DNA of 64,000 nt from Phormidesmis sp. (GCA_965248535.1 CBDFJR010000002.1:2144001-2208000), one strand, 5' to 3'. Counted from the stretch's first letter, positions 13,551-21,425 are shown. The notes: generated from the sequence alone by a model not told the origin. Numbers and translations are program-made.

Positions 13551-15464
13551 TTAACCAAGCTGCTCGATCGCTTGCTGAAACGCTTTTGAAATCACACCTT
13601 CTGGCATGGCTTTGATGACTTCTTGCCCTTGCTGGATTAAAAACTGCCTAAAAAACCAATCCTTTTCAGCCTCTGCTAACAGCACTTGCTGAACCAATTC
13701 AGTTTGAGTATCAGGGGTGGTGGCAATCTGCTGGCTAGCGAAGTGATTTAAGAGATTTTCGGCGGCGGTTGCAGGTTGGTCATTGCCTGGATGCGTTACC
13801 AACTGGCGTACTTGACTTGCCGCTTCATCGTAGTTAATCTTCCCTGATCCTGCGAGGTTGGCGATCGTGCTTCCAGAAATCACAAAGCTATTACCAAACG
13901 GTTTTTTACTATAGTTTTCGCTGGCGGCGGCAAGGCTGCGGGTGATTCCCATCAGTTGTGAGATCTGCTGATCTTTGGCGGCAAGCTGTTCTTCTAAAAC
14001 GCCGTAGCTTCTCATTAAGTGTTGCTCAACTTCTTGCCTAGAAGCGCCTTCGCGATGGGTCACTTTCACAATCCACAAGTCGCCGCGCCGCTCAATGCCC
14101 TTTAGCTGCAAGTCGAGACCATCATCCTCTAATTCCACATTCTGAAAGGCAAAGCTGAGGGCACGCAGATTTACGCCATCTTTGAACACTAACTCAACGG
14201 CATTTTTGACTTTTTGAAACAGGTTCTCAAATTCACCGGGTTCAAAGTTGCGGTCGACGGGGTAGCGATCGCTGGGTTTGTCATGCTCATATTCTCGATA
14301 AACGTAGTCACACTGAACGTTTGTAAAACACGTCTCGCCGTTGGTGCTCCAGTCTTTGATGCAAACTCCGGTGAGATTGGCTTCGCTAAAATTTACACCC
14401 GTAACCTGCGATCGTAGTAAAATAGCGTCACGCAAGTCTGTTCCTCTTAAGTCCGCTCCATCTAGATTGGCTTCTGCCAGATTCAGTCTTTGCATCTGAG
14501 CAGATTTTAGATTTGCTCCTCGCAAGTTTGTGCGGCTAAAATCCTGTTCGTCGCTATATCCATGCGTCAATAGTTCCTGAACTTTAGGATGGTTGAGATC
14601 CAGGTATCGGTTATCGACTCTGGCACGTTCCAGTCCGGTGACACCGTTTAAGCAGGTTCGATAGAGCCGCCGTGCCCGAAAATCACAGTTAGCTAAGTGA
14701 GAATTTGAAAAGTCAATTTCGCTTAAATCTAAGTTGTAAAAGGAGGTGCCACCCCAAGAGGCAAGGGCGATCGACCAAGATTTTAAGAATTGAAGATCTC
14801 GCGCTAATTTTTGATTTGCCTTTGTAATTACGTTGCTGGCTCTAAGCAGGCAATAGCTTGTTAGAAATCCAGCTAGAATTTTCAGAACTGGAAAGTAGGG
14901 GGTGTCTCTAGGCGTACTGCCCATATAAGAGTAGGCAACCGCAGTTGATATTGAGATTGTTAAGATTAGATAAATCGTCCCGAAATGTCTTCTATTTGAC
15001 AGCGTAGAAATGAGTGACAGAGATAACCCATTAGCAACTAGGCTGAGAGAGACGACTGCTAAAGCGACGATCGCAAGCAGCAAAATTGCCCCAATCAGTT
15101 CTGTCGTTCTAAATGTTAAAACTGATGAAACTAACATCAATAAGATAAAGGAACTTGTCTTCCACAGACTGCTGCCTAAACCACGAAAAATTATTTCTGC
15201 AACCCAAATGCTGATGATGGAAACAACTACTAAAACGAGAAAGACTGATTGGTTAAAGCCTAAGATAGTACGACTGATCGTGACCGCAAAGGTACTGCCT
15301 AAAAAACCCAGAAGGCAGCCAGTTGAAATAGCAATCAGTACCACTAAGGTCACTAGCAATAATCTAAAGATTGCAGGCTGACCAAACTTAACAGATTGAA
15401 AGTTAGACTTTAGGGCGATTTGTGTGAAGCGTCTGCCAAGAATTGCCTCTGAGTTATTGTTCAC
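13551..15464 (-). CDS. multi-TM pentapeptide-repeat protein with C-terminal G/S/N-rich motif and helical tail
   Basis: About 6 N-terminal TM helices; GGTSFYNLDLS...; pentapeptide repeats (TNLRG ANLKS...ANLDG ADLRG TDLRD); CDYVY; NSFVISGSTIANLAGSGKINY near the C-terminus; start uncertain. Confidence 0.8.
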   Translation of the reverse strand: MNNNSEAILGRRFTQIALKSNFQSVKFGQPAIFRLLLVTLVVLIAISTGCLLGFLGSTFAVTISRTILGFNQSVFLVLVVVSIISIWVAEIIFRGLGSSLWKTSSFILLMLVSSVLTFRTTELIGAILLLAIVALAVVSLSLVANGLSLSLISTLSNRRHFGTIYLILTISISTAVAYSYMGSTPRDTPYFPVLKILAGFLTSYCLLRASNVITKANQKLARDLQFLKSWSIALASWGGTSFYNLDLSEIDFSNSHLANCDFRARRLYRTCLNGVTGLERARVDNRYLDLNHPKVQELLTHGYSDEQDFSRTNLRGANLKSAQMQRLNLAEANLDGADLRGTDLRDAILLRSQVTGVNFSEANLTGVCIKDWSTNGETCFTNVQCDYVYREYEHDKPSDRYPVDRNFEPGEFENLFQKVKNAVELVFKDGVNLRALSFAFQNVELEDDGLDLQLKGIERRGDLWIVKVTHREGASRQEVEQHLMRSYGVLEEQLAAKDQQISQLMGITRSLAAASENYSKKPFGNSFVISGSTIANLAGSGKINYDEAASQVRQLVTHPGNDQPATAAENLLNHFASQQIATTPDTQTELVQQVLLAEAEKDWFFRQFLIQQGQEVIKAMPEGVISKAFQQAIEQLG

Positions 15465-15493
15465 CGTAGGTTGAAAGTTATGGGGATTAACTA

Positions 15494-17401
15494 ATGGTTT
15501 CTTACAGAATACTAAAAAATAGCATACTGGGTGGAGCTGACTTTTGCAGCGTAGCGGAGGGTGGAGTCAGAGTAGTTTGCGAAAGTAACTATCCGACTGG
15601 TGAGATTAGAGACATTGAGTTGAGCGATCCGATCGGAGGTCAAGAGTTAGCAGATATTCTGAATGCTCGATCGCTGGAATCGATCAAACAAGCATCAAAA
15701 TTAGTTTACGGTGAATCTGACTTTCTGCCCTTTGCTTTTTTAGGTCATGGACTGAGAGCGGGTGCGGCAGTTTGTCGATTGGTTCGTCACTACTCGGATG
15801 ATGGAATAGACAAACTTATTGAGATGATTCAAGAGGTAAACTATAGCAAACTTGAAATTCGTGAGCTGCTGAAAACTTCAAAGATAGAGATTTTAGATGA
15901 TTTTTGGGGAACTTATGAGCAAGTATCCGATGCGTTAAAAGCAGATCAAACGATTAGAGAACAACTCAAAGAACGGTTTAAGAAAGCAATGCCGATCGCG
16001 TATGGAACAGGTTTTTTAGTCGGTCGAAATCACCTATTAACTAATCATCATGTTTTAAGCGATCCAAGTGCGGTAGGAGAGTTTACAGCACAGTTTTGCT
16101 ATGAACAAAACTCTTCGGATGAAGAGACTTTACCCTTTGAATATAAGCTCGACGCAAGTGTTTTTAAGACTGACTCAGACTTAGACTACACCTTAGTTGG
16201 CGTTCGACCCCTCAATTCTGAGACCGTCTCTAAAGACGGCATGAAATACTATCGTGATGAATCAGGTAAAAACTATTTAACCTTTCGTGAAGCAGGCAAT
16301 AATTTTGGGTGGCTACAGATGTCTGATGATTACAAAATTATCGCGCCCCCTGTATGCAAAGACGAGGTGATGTCTGAGGCTATTGGCGATTTTGCCTTAT
16401 TTAAGGAGACAATCAACCCAGAAATTCTTCAGAAGAAACTTGAAATTTCTGATTTGCTAGGAGAACCCCTCAACATCATTCAGCACCCCAAAGGACGAGA
16501 GAAAGAAATTGTTATCTACAACAATAGGGTGCAAAAAATATACCCACAATTCATTCAATATGAAACCGATGCGGAGCCTGGTTCATCAGGCAGTCCACTT
16601 TTTAATTCACAATGGCAATTAGTTGGGCTACATCACTCGGCTTTAGTTGAAGAGTTAGGAAAAGTAGCGGGTTATTTGGGCACTCGAATTCATCACATTG
16701 TTAAAGATTTGCAAAAGAGCAACGATGCAAAAACGAAAGAATTTATAGATCGGTTTGTGACAAATCCTCGAAAAGGAACTATCTATCTTCTGGCGGGCTT
16801 GAAGAGAGACGGAGTGGTCGAAAGTCCAGTTCTTGAAGCTGACCAAATGACAATTTTAGGTAATCGCATTAATAAGCTATTCAGTGGAGAATTCTCTAAA
16901 CATGGATTTGAACTTCAGCTAGTTCCTGAAGAATTTCGGCAGAATGAAGATCGAGCGATCGAGTGGATCAATCAGCAAGATTACAATGTTGGCGATGTTG
17001 CCCTCGAAATCGTGACCGACTCTATCCCTGAAAATCAAACCGTGCGAGGATCGGCGGCTTATTATTTCAAAGACAGTTTAGAACGTAAATCTCATGCTGA
17101 ACTGCTGCTGCAATCGTTGCTAAAAAGAGTTCCAGATCTGCCCGATCGCGGCACAAAATCTGATAGGGCCACCAAAGGTAGAAGATTGCCCTTCTGTCGT
17201 GATATTTTTATGCCATCACTGGTGCTGTATGTCGGATTTTTGACTAATTCGGAAGATGTGAATGTGATTAAAACTCAATCAGAAAACATTGCCCAAGGCA
17301 TTTCTGAAGGGCTGGTTCTTTGGGCTAAAAGCGTTAGTCCTCTTAATTCTGAGATTGCCCTATTTCGACCCACTTATCTACCTAGAATTGTCGAAGCATA
17401 A
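15494..17401 (+). CDS. trypsin-like serine protease fused to an Amidase_3-like (N-acetylmuramoyl-L-alanine amidase-like) domain
   Basis: GTGFLV, LLTNHHV (His), LDYTLV (Asp), IIQHPKG, EPGSSGSP (Ser); C-terminal TIYLLAG...ALEIVTDS...LPDRGTKSD...SLVLYVGFLTNSED resembles Amidase_3. Confidence 0.8.
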   Translation: MVSYRILKNSILGGADFCSVAEGGVRVVCESNYPTGEIRDIELSDPIGGQELADILNARSLESIKQASKLVYGESDFLPFAFLGHGLRAGAAVCRLVRHYSDDGIDKLIEMIQEVNYSKLEIRELLKTSKIEILDDFWGTYEQVSDALKADQTIREQLKERFKKAMPIAYGTGFLVGRNHLLTNHHVLSDPSAVGEFTAQFCYEQNSSDEETLPFEYKLDASVFKTDSDLDYTLVGVRPLNSETVSKDGMKYYRDESGKNYLTFREAGNNFGWLQMSDDYKIIAPPVCKDEVMSEAIGDFALFKETINPEILQKKLEISDLLGEPLNIIQHPKGREKEIVIYNNRVQKIYPQFIQYETDAEPGSSGSPLFNSQWQLVGLHHSALVEELGKVAGYLGTRIHHIVKDLQKSNDAKTKEFIDRFVTNPRKGTIYLLAGLKRDGVVESPVLEADQMTILGNRINKLFSGEFSKHGFELQLVPEEFRQNEDRAIEWINQQDYNVGDVALEIVTDSIPENQTVRGSAAYYFKDSLERKSHAELLLQSLLKRVPDLPDRGTKSDRATKGRRLPFCRDIFMPSLVLYVGFLTNSEDVNVIKTQSENIAQGISEGLVLWAKSVSPLNSEIALFRPTYLPRIVEA

Positions 17402-17416
17402 GCTTTAGAAAGGAGA

Positions 17417-18109
17417 TTACTTGGTGAGTAGAACGGGCGTTAAAAACTCTTCAATTCCTGCCATACGAATTGCAGCACACCCAAATTTGTAAGCTCTCTC
17501 AACCGATTCACCCGCCACGATCGCATCATAAAACCCCACCGAAAACTCGATCGCGGCTTTGTCTCCGATCGCTTGATTCATCCCAATCACATAAGGGATA
17601 TGTTGAGCGATCGCCGTTGCCTGAGTTTCTGAATAACAAGCATTAAGCAAAACGCAGGTGATCTGATCAGCAAACAATTCAAATAAATCTGCTAGTGCTT
17701 CGGCACTGACCAACGTCACTTCACCGATCTCATTTTCTAGAGCCAGTCCCTCAGCTCCGACTCCATGTCCACAAAAATGGACAAACTGAGGCTTGCAGTC
17801 TGATAAAGCGCGACGCACATCTCTAGGACGAACTGCCCATTTTTGTTCCAAGAGCAAGCGATCGTTCTGACCATTTCGCTGCAACCCAGCCTCAATTTCT
17901 CGCACCTCTTCACCCAGTCGTAGCTGTGAGGTGCCTTTAGGGTTTGCTGCCAAAATCAAAATCGTCGATCGTTGCGTCTGACTCTCTGCTGATTGATCGG
18001 GTGATGGAGAGTCGGTGAGATTGGGGTTAGAAACTTCTTGGTAATGAATATCGCCAGATCCAGCTAGATTCGTAATGTTGCTTCCCGATATGTTGAATGA
18101 ATTATTCAT
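17417..18109 (-). CDS. CHAT (caspase-HetF-associated) domain protease with short N-terminal motif
   Basis: ILILAANPKGTSQLRLGEEVREIE, VHFCGHG (His), VLLNACYS (Cys), IPYVIGM, AAIEFSVGFYDA. Confidence 0.88.
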   Translation of the reverse strand: MNNSFNISGSNITNLAGSGDIHYQEVSNPNLTDSPSPDQSAESQTQRSTILILAANPKGTSQLRLGEEVREIEAGLQRNGQNDRLLLEQKWAVRPRDVRRALSDCKPQFVHFCGHGVGAEGLALENEIGEVTLVSAEALADLFELFADQITCVLLNACYSETQATAIAQHIPYVIGMNQAIGDKAAIEFSVGFYDAIVAGESVERAYKFGCAAIRMAGIEEFLTPVLLTK

Positions 18110-18136: not shown

Positions 18137-18781
18137 CTAGACAAGATTGGGATCGATGCCGAGCGATCGTAGTCTTTCAGCTAACTGCTCTGCCCGTTCT
18201 TGGGGAGTAGGAACAAGCCGTCCATCAGCCGTAAAATAGCGAAGTTGCTCATTCTCAACGCCCAAATAAAGCTCTAGTTCCTCACTCCAACGCCAACCGT
18301 TAGAATTTGTTTCGATCGGTTGATATTGAGTTCCGGTGAAGCGAAACCCCTCAAACTCTAGTGTGTCTGGGGAAAACCAGAAATATTCTGGAGTCCGAAA
18401 GCGGTCTTGATAAAGCGTTTTCTTAAGGGTGCGGTCTATCTCGGCGGTCGAAGTTGAGAGTAGTTCAATAATCAGATTTGGATATTTGCCATCTTCTTCC
18501 CATGTCACCCAGGCGTTGCGAGGTCGCCGATCGGTTTGCTTGATTAAAAAGAAATCAGGCCCGCGAAAGTCCCGGTTTCGCAGTTGTTGACGACTGAAAT
18601 AAACAGTCAGATTTGCCCCAATAAAGAAATCGTCGCGGGTGCTCCACAAAAATTCGAGACAGGCGACCAAGAGTGCCAGTTGGGTGTAGTGTAATGAACT
18701 TTCCATTTCTGGCTCATCGCTCAAAAGTTTAGTGGCATCGGGCATTATGGCTTCTAGCTGTTGCGCGGTTATGCCTGTCAT
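18137..18781 (-). CDS. Uma2 family (PD-D/ExK-like) endonuclease
   Basis: SDEPEMESSLHY, FRGPDFF, PNLIIELLS, YQDRFRTPEYFWF, ERAEQLAERLRSLGIDP; likely ATG at 18781. Confidence 0.9.
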   Translation of the reverse strand: MTGITAQQLEAIMPDATKLLSDEPEMESSLHYTQLALLVACLEFLWSTRDDFFIGANLTVYFSRQQLRNRDFRGPDFFLIKQTDRRPRNAWVTWEEDGKYPNLIIELLSTSTAEIDRTLKKTLYQDRFRTPEYFWFSPDTLEFEGFRFTGTQYQPIETNSNGWRWSEELELYLGVENEQLRYFTADGRLVPTPQERAEQLAERLRSLGIDPNLV

Positions 18782-19000
18782 GTTCATGGAGTTGCCTGGC
18801 GCGTTTAGTCTTATTATCCGCGATCGGTCGTAGATTACTTCAAAACTGCCGTGTGTGGTCAACAGGTAGAGACGGTTCCAAAAGCTACCATCTCCTGATT
18901 AAGAATTAATAAAAAATCCTGCTCTTGCTTTTAGGAGAGCGACTAAAGTAATAGCGAACTATCTCACGCACTGTTATTAATTGAAAAAAGGTGAATATAT

Positions 19001-19573
19001 ATGGTAGGTCAACTAGTCCCAATCGATCTAGACAAACCTTTTGCAGAACAGCAGTCAGTTAAGGAACTATTGAAGCTGCCCGAAGATAAAACTAAAAAGC
19101 TTGGATTTGATCAACTGCTAGAAATTGCAAAAGTGGCAGTCAGGAGCGAATTGGTCTCTTGTGGTTGTTCTGAAAATGCGCTAACTGGGCTGAGATTAGA
19201 ATATTTATCTCAAGCAGGAGCTGATCAACCAGAAGAAAAATACGTGCTTGAGTGGACAAAGCTCAATCAAAGCAACTCATCGATAGAGGCAGCTTCTACT
19301 GAAGAACCTCCACAACTGTCTGATAGCTTTCACACAAGACTTTTTAACAGGTTAGATGCTGAATTACCTAAAGGAGGAAACCTAACAGCAAATCGTATCA
19401 AATTCAGAGGAGCTGAAGATAGTAGTGGTATGACTTGCTGTGGCCCAGAGCCTGATACAAAGAGCTATTATAAAATAATAGATAATAATGGAGATGAAAA
19501 GTATGTTCTGAAAGATGGACAGAAATGGGAGTGCGGAAATGTAGAGTCAGGCAATCGCGATGTTATTATTTGA
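19001..19573 (+). CDS. hypothetical protein
   Basis: 190-aa ORF, AAGGTG SD before the ATG, AT-rich; overlaps the end of the convergent gene by 8 bp. Confidence 0.6.
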   Translation: MVGQLVPIDLDKPFAEQQSVKELLKLPEDKTKKLGFDQLLEIAKVAVRSELVSCGCSENALTGLRLEYLSQAGADQPEEKYVLEWTKLNQSNSSIEAASTEEPPQLSDSFHTRLFNRLDAELPKGGNLTANRIKFRGAEDSSGMTCCGPEPDTKSYYKIIDNNGDEKYVLKDGQKWECGNVESGNRDVII

Positions 19574-21425
19574 ACATGGAAGCTAATTTTTGAGTAGTTG
19601 AAAGCAAAGCAGGCTTTTTCTGTGCAAGTGCTTCTAGGTCATCAATGACTCTGCTTTGCTCAGTTTTTTGATTGCCTAAGTATTGCTTAATCCTAATATA
19701 TGTTTGCTTCGCATCCTCTGTTTTTGCTGCTTGTAGTTGAGTCAAGCCAAGTAACCGCAGTGCGTTAATTTCTCTTGGGTTTTGCCTCAGAAACTGTTGG
19801 AGATCTAGGATCGCTTTCTGCATCTTCCCTTGCTTTAGATACATCCTTGCTCGATTGAATATGGCAATTTGTGCCGTACCAGTTTGTGTGGTTAACCGTT
19901 TTTCTATTGAATTATTGGTCACTTTATTAAAGGCTTGTTCTGCCTCGTTTAGTTGACCCAAAGCTGTGTAAAGTAAACCTTGGTCGTTCAGCGCTTCATA
20001 ATTAGTTTCGTTCTTCTCAATTGCTTTCTGATAAGCGCTGATAGCAATTTCACACTTCTCAGGATTTGGGCAGTTTGCTTGGTCGCGGACTGGAACATAC
20101 AACTTTCCTAACTCGTAGTAGGCAGTGGAAACCTTTTCTTTCGTAATCGAGTTATGCAAGTCTAGCTTCCTCAGCTCTATTTGACCCAAGACACTTTGTA
20201 AGATATTGATAGCATCCTGTGGGCGTTTCTCTGCTTTGTAAATGCTACTCAACTTGAAAGCAGCCATGACAGGAACAAGATCTGCCCAATCTTTTGTTTG
20301 AACCTCGAAGTCTACAGATTTATCGGTTGGGCTAGGGAGCTTACTAAGTGGAAGGGTTTTGACTTTGACAGAGGTGACATAGACATTTAAACTTGTTCCT
20401 GCTCTACGTCCCCAGATGATAACAGATGCATTCAACCGTGCGCTCTCTTCTTCGGCTTTGTCGAGTTGAGCAATCGGATCACTGATGTAACAAACTTTAA
20501 CATTAGGTAAAGATAGCGCCTTGAAACGTTCGCTAATATTCTCTTTTAATTGAGGATTGGTTGGATTACTGCTTGATTCGTTACTAAATTGAGCGAGGCC
20601 GATCGCTTTCTCCTGATTTTTCTCAGCCTCTCTAAAACACGCCGATTCACCCAACCCCAGTTGATCGCGAACTTGGGGAATTGATAGAGCGATCGCACCC
20701 AGTCCAAACACTCCTAATAGACTTGCCAGCACCCAAGCACGGAAACGATTAGACTTTTGACCAGATAACGCTAGAGGCGGAATTGTCCACTCAGCCAGAG
20801 CCGTCCAGGTGGTCGCAATCACCCGTGTAGGAATAATGAAGGCAATTTTGGCATCTGCACGGTTGAGATCAGCCGCCACCGCCATACCTACCACACCGCC
20901 AAGTTGCTCATCCCACACAGGCGCACCGCTATAGCCTGACTCTAATCGCCCCCCTGTTGATTTGACATCCTCAACTTGCACCCACCCTGTTCCTTGCCGT
21001 CCGCGCAAGATGCCTGTAGACCACAGCCCATCATCATGACCTACCGGAAACCCAAATGTCTGAAAAGGATGATTCCATAGATCTTCTTCTAGCAGAAGAC
21101 GCACAGGTTTTGCAGAAGCAGGTAAAGGGTCGTTAAGTTCCAGAACAGCAATATCTTCGTGACCTTGAGTAGAATTACCCCTGTCGGGAATGGGTCGCCA
21201 AAAAACGACCAGTGCTGTTAGTCGCACATCAGGAGCAACGAGGGGGAAGTCGAGAAAAATAGGTGCAGAAGGTCTTTGAGGCGCAGATTCTGAGATGCCC
21301 AAGGCTTGAGCGATGACGTGGGCACAGGTCAACACATACTTCTCATGAATGAGAAACCCTGCTCCAACAATTGCGCCAGTTGGTTTACGAATTCGGACGA
21401 TCGCGGCTTCAACAGATGCACTCAT
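19566..21425 (-). CDS. trypsin-like protease - TM - TPR protein
   Basis: GAGFLI, LTCAHVI (His), EDIAVLEL (Asp), SGYSGAPVW (Ser); TM WVLASLLGVFGLGAIALSI; C-terminal TPRs (AYYELG, ALNDQG, AIFNRA). Confidence 0.85.
   Translation of the reverse strand: MSASVEAAIVRIRKPTGAIVGAGFLIHEKYVLTCAHVIAQALGISESAPQRPSAPIFLDFPLVAPDVRLTALVVFWRPIPDRGNSTQGHEDIAVLELNDPLPASAKPVRLLLEEDLWNHPFQTFGFPVGHDDGLWSTGILRGRQGTGWVQVEDVKSTGGRLESGYSGAPVWDEQLGGVVGMAVAADLNRADAKIAFIIPTRVIATTWTALAEWTIPPLALSGQKSNRFRAWVLASLLGVFGLGAIALSIPQVRDQLGLGESACFREAEKNQEKAIGLAQFSNESSSNPTNPQLKENISERFKALSLPNVKVCYISDPIAQLDKAEEESARLNASVIIWGRRAGTSLNVYVTSVKVKTLPLSKLPSPTDKSVDFEVQTKDWADLVPVMAAFKLSSIYKAEKRPQDAINILQSVLGQIELRKLDLHNSITKEKVSTAYYELGKLYVPVRDQANCPNPEKCEIAISAYQKAIEKNETNYEALNDQGLLYTALGQLNEAEQAFNKVTNNSIEKRLTTQTGTAQIAIFNRARMYLKQGKMQKAILDLQQFLRQNPREINALRLLGLTQLQAAKTEDAKQTYIRIKQYLGNQKTEQSRVIDDLEALAQKKPALLSTTQKLASMFK

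Follow-up and report, generated by a model that had tools for sequence, protein, structure and literature searches.

The question raised by this locus is why a membrane pentapeptide-repeat protein (PRP) and a caspase-like CHAT protease, encoded by nearby genes, should carry the same short peptide. Both genes lie in a stretch of 64,000 nucleotides from Phormidesmis sp. (GCA_965248535.1, CBDFJR010000002.1:2144001-2208000), referred to here as the window, in which positions are counted from the first nucleotide. A reading made from the sequence alone had proposed that the two proteins form a homotypic receptor-effector system. The analysis reported here places the pair in a conserved, cyanobacteria-restricted three-gene cassette. 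Judging from sequence comparisons, the peptide is probably a homotypic beta-strand adaptor of this cassette that recruits variable effectors to the membrane PRP. In outline, the original proposal holds, in that the motif is rare and linked, the membrane PRP is constant and the effectors are interchangeable. The matching of cognate motifs is only marginal, however, and the third gene had been overlooked. The three genes and the two motif copies are the following.

13551..15464, minus strand: PRP gene, 637 amino acids, the constant motif-bearing component (open reading frame, Pfam Pentapeptide match and AlphaFold2 model).
13824-13892, minus strand: PRP motif core, 23 amino acids, NSFVISGSTIANLAGSGKINYDE, residues 525-547 of the 637-residue open reading frame.
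15494..17401, plus strand: gene for a trypsin-like serine protease with an N-acetylmuramoyl-L-alanine amidase domain, 635 amino acids, divergent (Pfam Trypsin_2 and Amidase_3).
17417..18109, minus strand: CHAT gene, 230 amino acids, a caspase-superfamily protease and the motif-bearing effector (open reading frame and Pfam CHAT match).
18035-18103, minus strand: CHAT motif, 23 amino acids, NSFNISGSNITNLAGSGDIHYQE, residues 3-25 of the 230-residue open reading frame.

One peptide in two proteins

A codon-wise comparison of the two motifs gives 17 identical residues out of 23, with different codons at 10 of these 17 positions. The coordinates, sequences and both counts given by the sequence-only reading were reproduced exactly. 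Identity of the motif DNA is 44/69, while four in-register flanking windows reach only 14-26/69. A BLASTP alignment of the PRP with the CHAT protein (one comparison) returned a single stretch at the motif, with 22/41 residues identical and E=5e-8. No likeness was found outside this stretch, the remaining segments having E>3, in agreement with the earlier impression that the proteins share nothing else.

The whole 5.03-Mb genome was also scanned in six frames with a hidden Markov model (HMM) of the motif, taking in all 57,564 stop-to-stop frames of at least 40 amino acids. The two window copies, which are 4.2 kb apart, were recovered with E values of 3.5e-15 and 1.3e-14, and no third copy was found in the genome, the next-best score being E=1.4. 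The motif pair in the window is far beyond chance. Recent duplication or gene conversion was rejected, given the different codons at 10 of the 17 identical positions and the retention of the motif across distant genera. The same two observations bear out the suggestion that selection acts on the peptide.

Rarity of the motif family

On the PRP side, the motif was present at the same place in 120 of the 120 homologues listed, which are 38-64% identical to the window protein apart from its own cluster, and it follows the consensus PFGNSFFITGSTITNLAGSGQIEY.EAA.QVRSIV. The conserved stretch spans 23-36 amino acids. The adaptor module can be described as about 30 residues with a core of 23, and the Pfam EAD models did not match the motif in the window proteins.

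A motif profile built from 36 segments was searched against 1.84 billion representative proteins at E<=1e-3. Only 72 protein clusters matched, 12 of them PRP-family proteins known before and 60 newly found. A Pfam scan assigned 19 of the 60 new representatives to the PRP family and 14 to an effector or adaptor domain, while 25, mostly short, had no significant match and the last two were weak profile matches (E~1e-4) that are probably false. The 14 effector or adaptor representatives comprise CHAT, Peptidase_C14 and C14+CHAT proteins, TIR proteins (P0264, P0283, P0285 and P0290), a Trypsin_2 protein (P0295) and EAD10 proteins. No NLR/STAND or Bell protein with the motif was present among the profile matches, the 60 new ones having been scanned with Pfam and the other 12 belonging to the PRP family. 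The candidate explanation of a generic low-complexity linker was discarded, since no more than 72 clusters in 1.84 billion match. The sequence-only reading had itself called for an HMM search for further receptors, effectors and a conserved neighbourhood, and its outcome was favorable: the motif is rare, is shared by linked genes and occurs on several types of effector.

A conserved three-gene cassette

A scan for the PRP family in 185,579 species genomes gave 411 stretches, from which 80 loci were kept. All 80 are cyanobacterial and belong mainly to filamentous genera, with hosts that include Nostoc, Calothrix, Scytonema, Fischerella, Microcoleus, Lyngbya, Coleofasciculus, Phormidesmis and Leptolyngbya. 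An open reading frame for a PRP with the motif was present in 72 of the 80 loci, and 57 of these 72 contained a second motif-bearing open reading frame, the partner. Seven of the 15 partnerless loci have less than 0.5 kb of upstream DNA. When only loci with more than 5 kb of upstream DNA are considered (full-flank loci, n=62), a partner was found in 54, a homologue of the divergent trypsin-like protease within 1.5 kb upstream of the PRP in 58, and both in 50. In 54 of the 57 loci with a partner, the partner is upstream of the PRP, and in 44 of the 57 it shares the strand of the PRP. The median separation is 2.3 kb. The gene order of the window, with the partner, the protease on the opposite strand and then the PRP, is typical.

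The partners themselves are variable. Pfam assigned the 61 motif-bearing open reading frames to CHAT (46), Peptidase_C14 (8), C14+CHAT (1) and EAD10 (3), with no assignment for three, one of which is a PRP fragment. In 34 of these 61 the motif is at the N-terminus, in 18 at the C-terminus and in 9 in the interior. A motif that is under selection, rare, linked and present on interchangeable effectors as well as on a constant PRP, with no NLR, is the pattern expected of a receptor-effector adaptor.

Strong motif matches were found in 8 of 400 other genomes sampled from the phylum, a patchy distribution. Two copies occur 2.2-6.8 kb apart on one contig in five of the eight (G029, G044, G216, G284 and G312). 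In G180, the PRP copy is accompanied by a 59-codon frame at a distance of 5 kb, and a CHAT copy is encoded on a different contig. G294 and G002 have a single motif copy at the strong threshold. Six further matches (E 0.003-0.009) cover only about 14 positions and were taken as noise. G294 is the only sampled genome of the window's family, and its PRP (G294:C6, L031:6349-7374) is a 342-residue remnant with pentapeptide repeats and the motif and no membrane region. No partner was found within the 14 kb examined around it.

Three loci (L066, L068 and L071) encode 124-residue proteins composed of EAD10 and the motif, which are pure adaptor-adaptor fusions. Other EAD10 proteins are encoded near them (L071:156-1277(-), L066:1672-2463(+) and L066:2507-3166(+)), and these neighbors include an EAD10-nSTAND1 NTPase, found at L071 only, an EAD10-pilin-like protein and EAD10 alone. 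Such neighbors suggest cross-wiring between the PRP cassette and EAD/STAND systems in some genomes of Lyngbya and Microcoleaceae.

Some PRP-family members without the 23-residue motif end in another module of about 130-150 residues (…NINAGRDVDLSSGTRVNV.GDVSG.LNLGEISGTVTN… followed by helices). These are L078:8962-11118, L079:8926-10926, L082:8494-10539, L103, L112 and L034:235-2424. The same module ends two CHAT partners (L069:1492-2652 and L080:6295-7446), where it follows a weak 23-residue motif, with 41-44% identity and a blastp E of about 1e-20. From its sequence and position it looks like a second flavor of module shared between receptor and effector.

The pentapeptide-repeat protein

Beyond the motif core, the following parts of the PRP were delimited.

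14820..15374, minus strand: membrane region, residues 31-215, with about six transmembrane helices (hydropathy peaks and AlphaFold2 helices).
14310..14744, minus strand: pentapeptide-repeat beta-helix, residues 241-385, with a modeled strand at each fifth residue.
13797..13907, minus strand: extended adaptor region, residues 520-556 (PFGNSF...GSG.I.Y.EAA.QVR..V), at the same position in 120 of 120 listed homologues.
13551..13796, minus strand: helical C-terminal tail, residues 557-637 (AlphaFold2 helices and conserved alignment columns).

The protein matches the Pfam models Pentapeptide (59.3 bits, cut-off 20.2) and Pentapeptide_4 (42.3 bits) and has 458 homologues at E<=1e-3, the 120 listed ones at E 1e-141 or better. 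Its AlphaFold2 model, computed from 94 sequences, has a mean pLDDT of 89.7. The membrane region is modeled as helices 31-64, 70-94, 96-118, 121-155, 160-179 and 191-215, which, together with hydropathy, is consistent with the transmembrane anchor read earlier. This region is also the least conserved part of the protein, and the conservation line of the homologue alignment is almost blank across it. Five K/R residues precede the first transmembrane helix and the partners lack signal peptides, so the soluble part of the PRP is presumably cytoplasmic.

Residues ~288-420 of the model align by VIA-align with HetL, Rfr (Rfr23), NP275 and MfpA at Z 13-14.6. Together with the Pfam matches, this identifies the tandem A(D/N)LXX repeats and right-handed quadrilateral beta-helix of pentapeptide-repeat proteins. 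Residues 1-30 (window 15375-15464) are modeled as short strands with a pLDDT of ~97, forming a short N-terminal strand segment, and some of the VIA-align matches to pentapeptide proteins begin at residues 1-4. On this basis, the membrane domain may be inserted between the first coil and the remainder of the beta-helix.

Past the beta-helix, the model contains a small alpha/beta domain (388-469), a long helix (476-508) and a disordered linker (502-518), after which the adaptor region begins. Within it, F527, N536, I543, Y545 and R553 are invariant in 94 sequences, and the motif is modeled as four short strands (521-523, 527-530, 533-536 and 542-544) in a block with pLDDT 87-93. The motif had been described as lying by the C-terminus of the PRP. 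It is instead internal (residues 525-547 of 637) and is followed by a conserved helical region of ~90 residues, in which helices 564-577, 584-601, 603-619 and 624-636 are modeled.

The motif might cap the PRP's own beta-helix, although the alignments with pentapeptide proteins end near residue 475 and never cover residues 521-544. A search of the ESM Atlas with residues 385-637 returned generic pentapeptide clusters only, with a score of 0.78 that is below the meaningful level.

The CHAT protein

The CHAT protein matches the Pfam CHAT model with 42.6 bits (cut-off 24) and has 3706 homologues. In an alignment of 59 homologues, the Cys of LNAC (C158) is invariant and the His residues of HFCGHG (H111 and H115) are at least 90% conserved, so the catalytic dyad is intact, as had been noted. 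The AlphaFold2 model has a pLDDT of 80.3, with a confident core of caspase-like fold at residues 48-230. Residues 1-45, comprising the motif and the linker, are disordered, with an average pLDDT of 44-50 and values below 50 for the motif. This agrees with the layout of motif, flexible linker and CHAT domain proposed from the sequence. The linker was delimited as follows.

17969..18034, minus strand: variable S/P/Q-rich linker, residues 26-47 of the CHAT protein (length-variable, gap-rich columns and low pLDDT).

The closest match in the PDB is the activated SAVED-CHAT filament 8tl0 (E 1.5e-12, TM 0.69, 26% identity), and Foldseek matched the model to caspases at about 1e-4. By its Pfam score above the cut-off, its His-Cys dyad and its fold, the protein is a member of the CHAT/caspase-haemoglobinase group. 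On the CHAT side, the motif is present in 94 of the 120 best homologues (HMM score >15) and is N-terminal in those inspected. Other members of the window's CHAT clade carry EAD1 or TIR in the motif's place.

The trypsin-like protease

The sequence-only reading described a system of two genes, and in doing so passed over the conserved trypsin-like protease encoded between them. The window protein matches Trypsin_2 (75.9 bits, residues 171-379) and Amidase_3 (35.7 bits, residues 490-607). Its triad motifs LTN.HV, LDY.L and GSSG are conserved in 67 sequences. The N-terminal region is also conserved between loci, the matches covering query residues ~40-390, and the C-terminal domain varies among homologues between Amidase_3, PG_binding_1, Laminin_G_3, GHL10 or none. 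Neither the window protein nor 62 of its 66 homologues has a hydrophobic segment. Residues 438-619 (window 16805-17350) match the NCBIfam TftA model, a hormogonium tapered-terminus morphoprotein, with E 3e-42 and 144.9 bits (cut-off 500), which hints at kinship with enzymes that remodel the cell wall at filament ends. The divergent start codons of the PRP (GTG) and of the protease (ATG) are just 29 bp apart (window 15465-15493), so that either the promoters extend into coding sequence or one start has been miscalled.

The constancy of this gene raises a different explanation of the shared motif. The peptide could be a short docking or cleavage site read by the neighboring protease, through either its N-domain of ~170 residues or its active site, in which case the PRP and the effector would be clients or substrates of a common third partner. 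The protease gene is the most constant neighbor (58/62 full-flank loci), its triad and N-terminal region are conserved, flexible linkers flank the motif, and the consensus residues are distinct on the two sides, as expected if one reader fits both. This explanation is weakened by pairs of PRP and partner that have no protease homologue in the DNA examined, namely L056, L058, L080 and L087 (4/62) and also G029. Moreover, the motif is nearly free of K/R, the PRP motif is modeled as a compact folded element, and the CHAT motif of the window begins at residue 3, so that cleavage there removes nothing. A common third partner thus appears quite improbable, and a contact between the motifs themselves is preferred.

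The nature of the contact

The core of the partner motifs is composed of N (20%), S (18%), I (13%) and G (12%), with 1.3% K and 0.3% P. In the PRP core, I, G, S, N and T each account for 11-13%, K for 0.4%, and P is absent. The motif is therefore poor in K/R/P and rich in N/S/G/I/T, with L not depleted at one conserved position. The residues F, I, I, L, I and Y alternate, two Asn are conserved, and in the PRP model three to four short strands are separated by Gly-rich turns. On both sides, F, N, the second G of the GSG turn, I and Y are almost invariant. A strand-prone composition rich in N/Q/G/V/I and poor in K/P/L is described for bacterial amyloid signalling motifs in a preprint (bioRxiv 10.1101/2020.01.06.895854), and the composition and strand propensity of the present motif agree with that of the BASS motifs. 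The motif is disordered in the monomer model of the CHAT protein and structured in that of the PRP.

Based on its five-residue periodicity (FNISG/SNITN/LAGSG/DIHYQ), the motif might be a pentapeptide coil, although the Pfam pentapeptide models do not cover it. Comparison of the motif with solved structures gave matches at E>0.2 only. Among these, 'N.AGSG.I' is weakly repeated with a spacing of ~20 residues in chain 3jx8_A ('Putative lipoprotein', E 0.84), which is a lead only. The fold of this chain is presumably a beta-helix.

These properties also suit a stronger proposal, true amyloid or prion-like signalling, in which the PRP would nucleate an open-ended cross-beta polymer of effector motifs, as in HET-s/NWD2 and BASS. 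A motif of ~23 residues that is rich in N/G/S, has alternating hydrophobics and is common to linked receptor and effector genes would be appropriate for this role, as would its disorder in the effector monomer model. In addition, the cassette is nearly confined to filamentous genera, judging by the names of the genomes, and CHAT and TIR are among the BASS-associated effectors described in a second preprint (bioRxiv 10.1101/2024.11.07.622273). On the other side, the system has no NLR, and the model shows the PRP copy as a stable fold rather than a disordered prion-like tail. The motifs form one tightly conserved family and not the many diverged, pair-matched families of fungal and bacterial amyloid motifs. 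HET-s-type pseudo-repeats are likewise absent from the effectors, since 60 of the 61 open reading frames give a single HMM stretch and the other, at L069, gives two adjacent partial ones. The column profile of the motifs (60 partner and 73 PRP sequences) does not contain the RHIM/BASS3 core (I/V)-Q-(I/V/L)-G, which is the consensus core of RHIM. The motif centre is I-T-N-L-x-G-S-G. Open-ended amyloid is accordingly regarded as rather unlikely, with a somewhat better standing than the other alternatives considered here.

Several observations weigh against a homotypic adaptor. The consensus differs by side, with FNIS...I[HYN]Y in the partners and F[FSV]I[TSV]GST...I[ED]Y in the PRPs. Column 7 is N in 90% of partners and F/S/V in PRPs, and column 23 is N/Y/H in partners and E/D in PRPs. 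Given a distinct consensus on each side, a heterotypic or third-party contact fits as well as in-register stacking. The similarity of cognate motif pairs is marginally higher than that of non-cognate pairs (0.564 vs 0.542 in 33 dereplicated loci), and this excess was reached by 0 of 10,000 shuffles, a test that relatedness between loci inflates. A one-residue deletion in the GSG turn is common to both partners in the Microcoleus loci L042 and L105 but unshared in L089 and in the proteins P0026 and P0155, which probably share a contig. With one clade for it and two counter-examples, co-variation of indels was rejected as support. The receptor motifs of NLR systems are terminal and disordered, whereas the PRP motif lies inside the protein and is modeled as folded with high confidence. 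Of the 62 full-flank loci, 8 have a PRP with the motif and no partner nearby. A search for longer relatives (1116-3185 residues) of PRP residues 380-637 found no fusion of the PRP to an effector at E<=0.001, which is weak evidence. PADLOC gave no match at the level of a whole defense system, just generic chat/SAVED_CHAT and protease models.

When the strand pattern and composition are set against the weak pair matching, the distinct consensus sequences and the lack of pseudo-repeats, docking is therefore favored over an open-ended amyloid. Homotypic strand-mediated docking is the most likely form of contact, with open-ended amyloid as a less likely special case of it.

Proposed mechanism

The cassette has one constant and two more variable components. 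The constant component is the PRP, with about six transmembrane helices and a presumably cytoplasmic part comprising the beta-helix, the small alpha/beta domain, the long helix, the motif and the helical tail. The second is the divergent trypsin-like protease, which has intact catalytic residues, no signal peptide and variable domains that are predicted to be wall-directed (amidase, peptidoglycan-binding, laminin-G-like and GH-like). The third, variable component is CHAT or C14, or elsewhere TIR, trypsin or an EAD10 adaptor, with the motif held on a flexible linker at either terminus.

Pentapeptide helices are known to bind proteins, and the PRP could serve as a sensor. The free effector motif, disordered alone, would dock by stacking its strands on the structured PRP motif, in a homotypic contact resembling one rung of a beta-solenoid. 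Clustering of the receptor would then gather CHAT or C14 domains and activate them by proximity, as in caspases and the SAVED-CHAT filament. The trypsin-like protease may be a co-effector or a substrate. As it lacks an export signal, any action on peptidoglycan would require membrane damage or release. The likely outcome would be proteolysis and attack on the cell wall, that is, regulated cell death or abortive defense in which a cell dies for the filament. What the comparisons and models establish is the motif with its conservation, rarity, linkage and modular attachment, together with the intact catalytic residues of both proteases and the predicted folds. Direct binding of motif to motif, activation by assembly, the PRP as sensor and a role in immunity or cell death are all inferred.

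The same cassette could have another role, in the developmental remodeling of the wall or the programmed lysis of filaments (necridia, hormogonium release or filament ends), with the caspase-like protease as a regulator. The Amidase_3, PG_binding_1, GH-like or laminin-G-like domains of the trypsin-like protease, the resemblance of its amidase region to the TftA model (E 3e-42, far below the family cut-off), the filamentous hosts and the lack of a match to a known defense system would all suit such a role. Development is less easily reconciled with the patchy distribution (8/400 genomes) and the variable flanks. Moreover, interchangeable effectors and links to EAD10, STAND and TIR are hallmarks of conflict systems as described in PMC7159879. 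The patchy distribution and the TIR, STAND and EAD links seem to fit a conflict system better than a developmental one, and a developmental role is considered doubtful.

A more ambitious version of the docking mechanism can also be formulated, and it is put forward as a speculative and rather improbable one. The motif would be a single beta-solenoid rung, the PRP would display a pre-folded template, and copies of the effector motif would stack on the template and on each other. Such stacking would yield an amyloid-like signalosome, anchored in the membrane and independent of nucleotides, that sets off caspase-like, TIR or trypsin effectors together with a wall-lytic protease and is cross-wired to STAND systems via EAD10-motif bridges. 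In that case, it would be the first amyloid-type pathway of death or immunity in prokaryotes to use a membrane receptor that is not an NLR.

Neighboring genes

Next to the CHAT gene, at 18137-18862 on the minus strand, is a gene for a Uma2-family putative restriction endonuclease (Pfam, 81.5 bits), with weak PADLOC matches to PDC-S03. Further along, 1.5 kb past the cassette, 19566-21425 on the minus strand encodes a protein of 619 residues, with Trypsin_2 at its N-terminus and TPR repeats at its C-terminus. This second protease of the conflict type does not belong to the conserved trio at other loci. Pfam found no NTPase among the six open reading frames at 13.5-21.4 kb or in the conserved trio. 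NCBIfam had nothing for the CHAT protein, and the matches of the other proteins were all below cut-off.

Comparison with known systems

Neither the motif nor the cassette was found described in the literature, Pfam, NCBIfam and PADLOC material searched, in which a description could still be present in figures or supplements. The motif strings did not occur in the text supplements of PMC8086366 or in what a full-text literature search covers. The systems closest in design are BASS1-11 (Dyrka et al., 2020 preprint; Bab/Agp BASS11, 2024 preprint), which pair Bell, TIR or CHAT effectors with NLRs. Like these, the cassette has a short, G/N-rich, strand-prone motif common to linked genes, CHAT and TIR effectors, an effector motif that is disordered on a linker, and multicellular hosts including cyanobacteria. 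A motif of ~25 residues common to closely linked genes is characteristic of BASS, and here the linkage holds in 54/62 loci, with a distance of 4.2 kb in the window. The NLR-like receptor of BASS, with NB-ARC or NACHT, repeats and an N-terminal motif, is replaced by a transmembrane PRP with the motif at residues 525-547. The cassette further differs in that this six-helix PRP lacks an NTPase, the receptor motif lies inside the protein with a predicted fold, the effector motif can be at either terminus, there is one conserved family, and a trypsin-like gene is added. The motif is set apart from BASS1-11 by their descriptions and not by their sequence logos, and it may be related in sequence to BASS7-10.

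A second group comprises EAD1-11 of the NTP-dependent conflict systems (Kaur, Burroughs, Iyer and Aravind, 2020, PMC7159879), many of which are described there as alpha-helical and Death-like. A constant core protein, interchangeable effectors and a small shared module are the signature that defines EAD adaptors (PMC7159879), and the same architecture was used to find amyloid signalling motifs (bioRxiv 10.1101/2020.01.06.895854). The cassette conforms to this signature in having one module on a constant core and on separate, variable effectors. It further resembles EAD systems in that these stand-alone effectors are caspase-like, trypsin and TIR proteins, that homotypic coupling is predicted, and that multicellular cyanobacteria are enriched among the hosts. 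The motif is even fused to EAD10, beside an EAD10-nSTAND1 protein. EADs, however, are globular domains of roughly 75-100 residues with their own fold (the Pfam EAD10 model has 77 positions), whereas the cassette module is a strand motif of ~23-30 residues within a conserved stretch of 23-36 that is disordered in the CHAT model. In addition, the core of EAD systems is built on an NTPase, while that of the cassette has no MoxR/vWA, STAND or GTPase.

Other comparisons are more limited. As with HET-s/NWD2 and RHIM, the unit has the size of one beta-solenoid rung, with Asn and Gly positions and alternating hydrophobics, and its use from receptor to executioner is proposed here. Unlike them, it has no double pseudo-repeats on the effector and no RHIM core, and the part of executioner falls to a protease in place of a pore-former or kinase. 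Type III CRISPR-associated SAVED-CHAT (8tl0) is the closest solved CHAT structure and is switched on by filament assembly. Its SAVED sensor binds a cyclic nucleotide, whereas the CHAT core of the window has just the 23-residue motif and the linker. Finally, fusions of cyanobacterial orthocaspases to pentapeptide repeats are recorded for 11 of 473 in PMC8283722. These fusions are single polypeptides and a possible 'all-in-one' counterpart of the cassette, which splits the parts over several genes.

Overall, the cassette works like the BASS/NLR and EAD systems yet misses defining features of each, having no NLR or NTPase and no globular EAD. Filamentous cyanobacteria have many orphan caspase homologues, and how these are activated is a standing problem in research on cyanobacterial cell death. 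Should the peptide prove to be the coupling device, it would offer a compact, testable handle on this problem and would extend peptide-templated signalling to membrane receptors. The EAD10-motif bridge proteins point to a single network that joins separate adaptor 'languages'. Short motifs that connect receptors to death effectors are known from fungi, from animals (RHIM) and from bacterial NLRs. In every described case of a shared motif known to us, a soluble NTPase serves as the receptor. The present cassette follows the same genomic logic with an NTPase-free membrane protein, interchangeable effectors, one small peptide and a fixed wall-directed protease companion.

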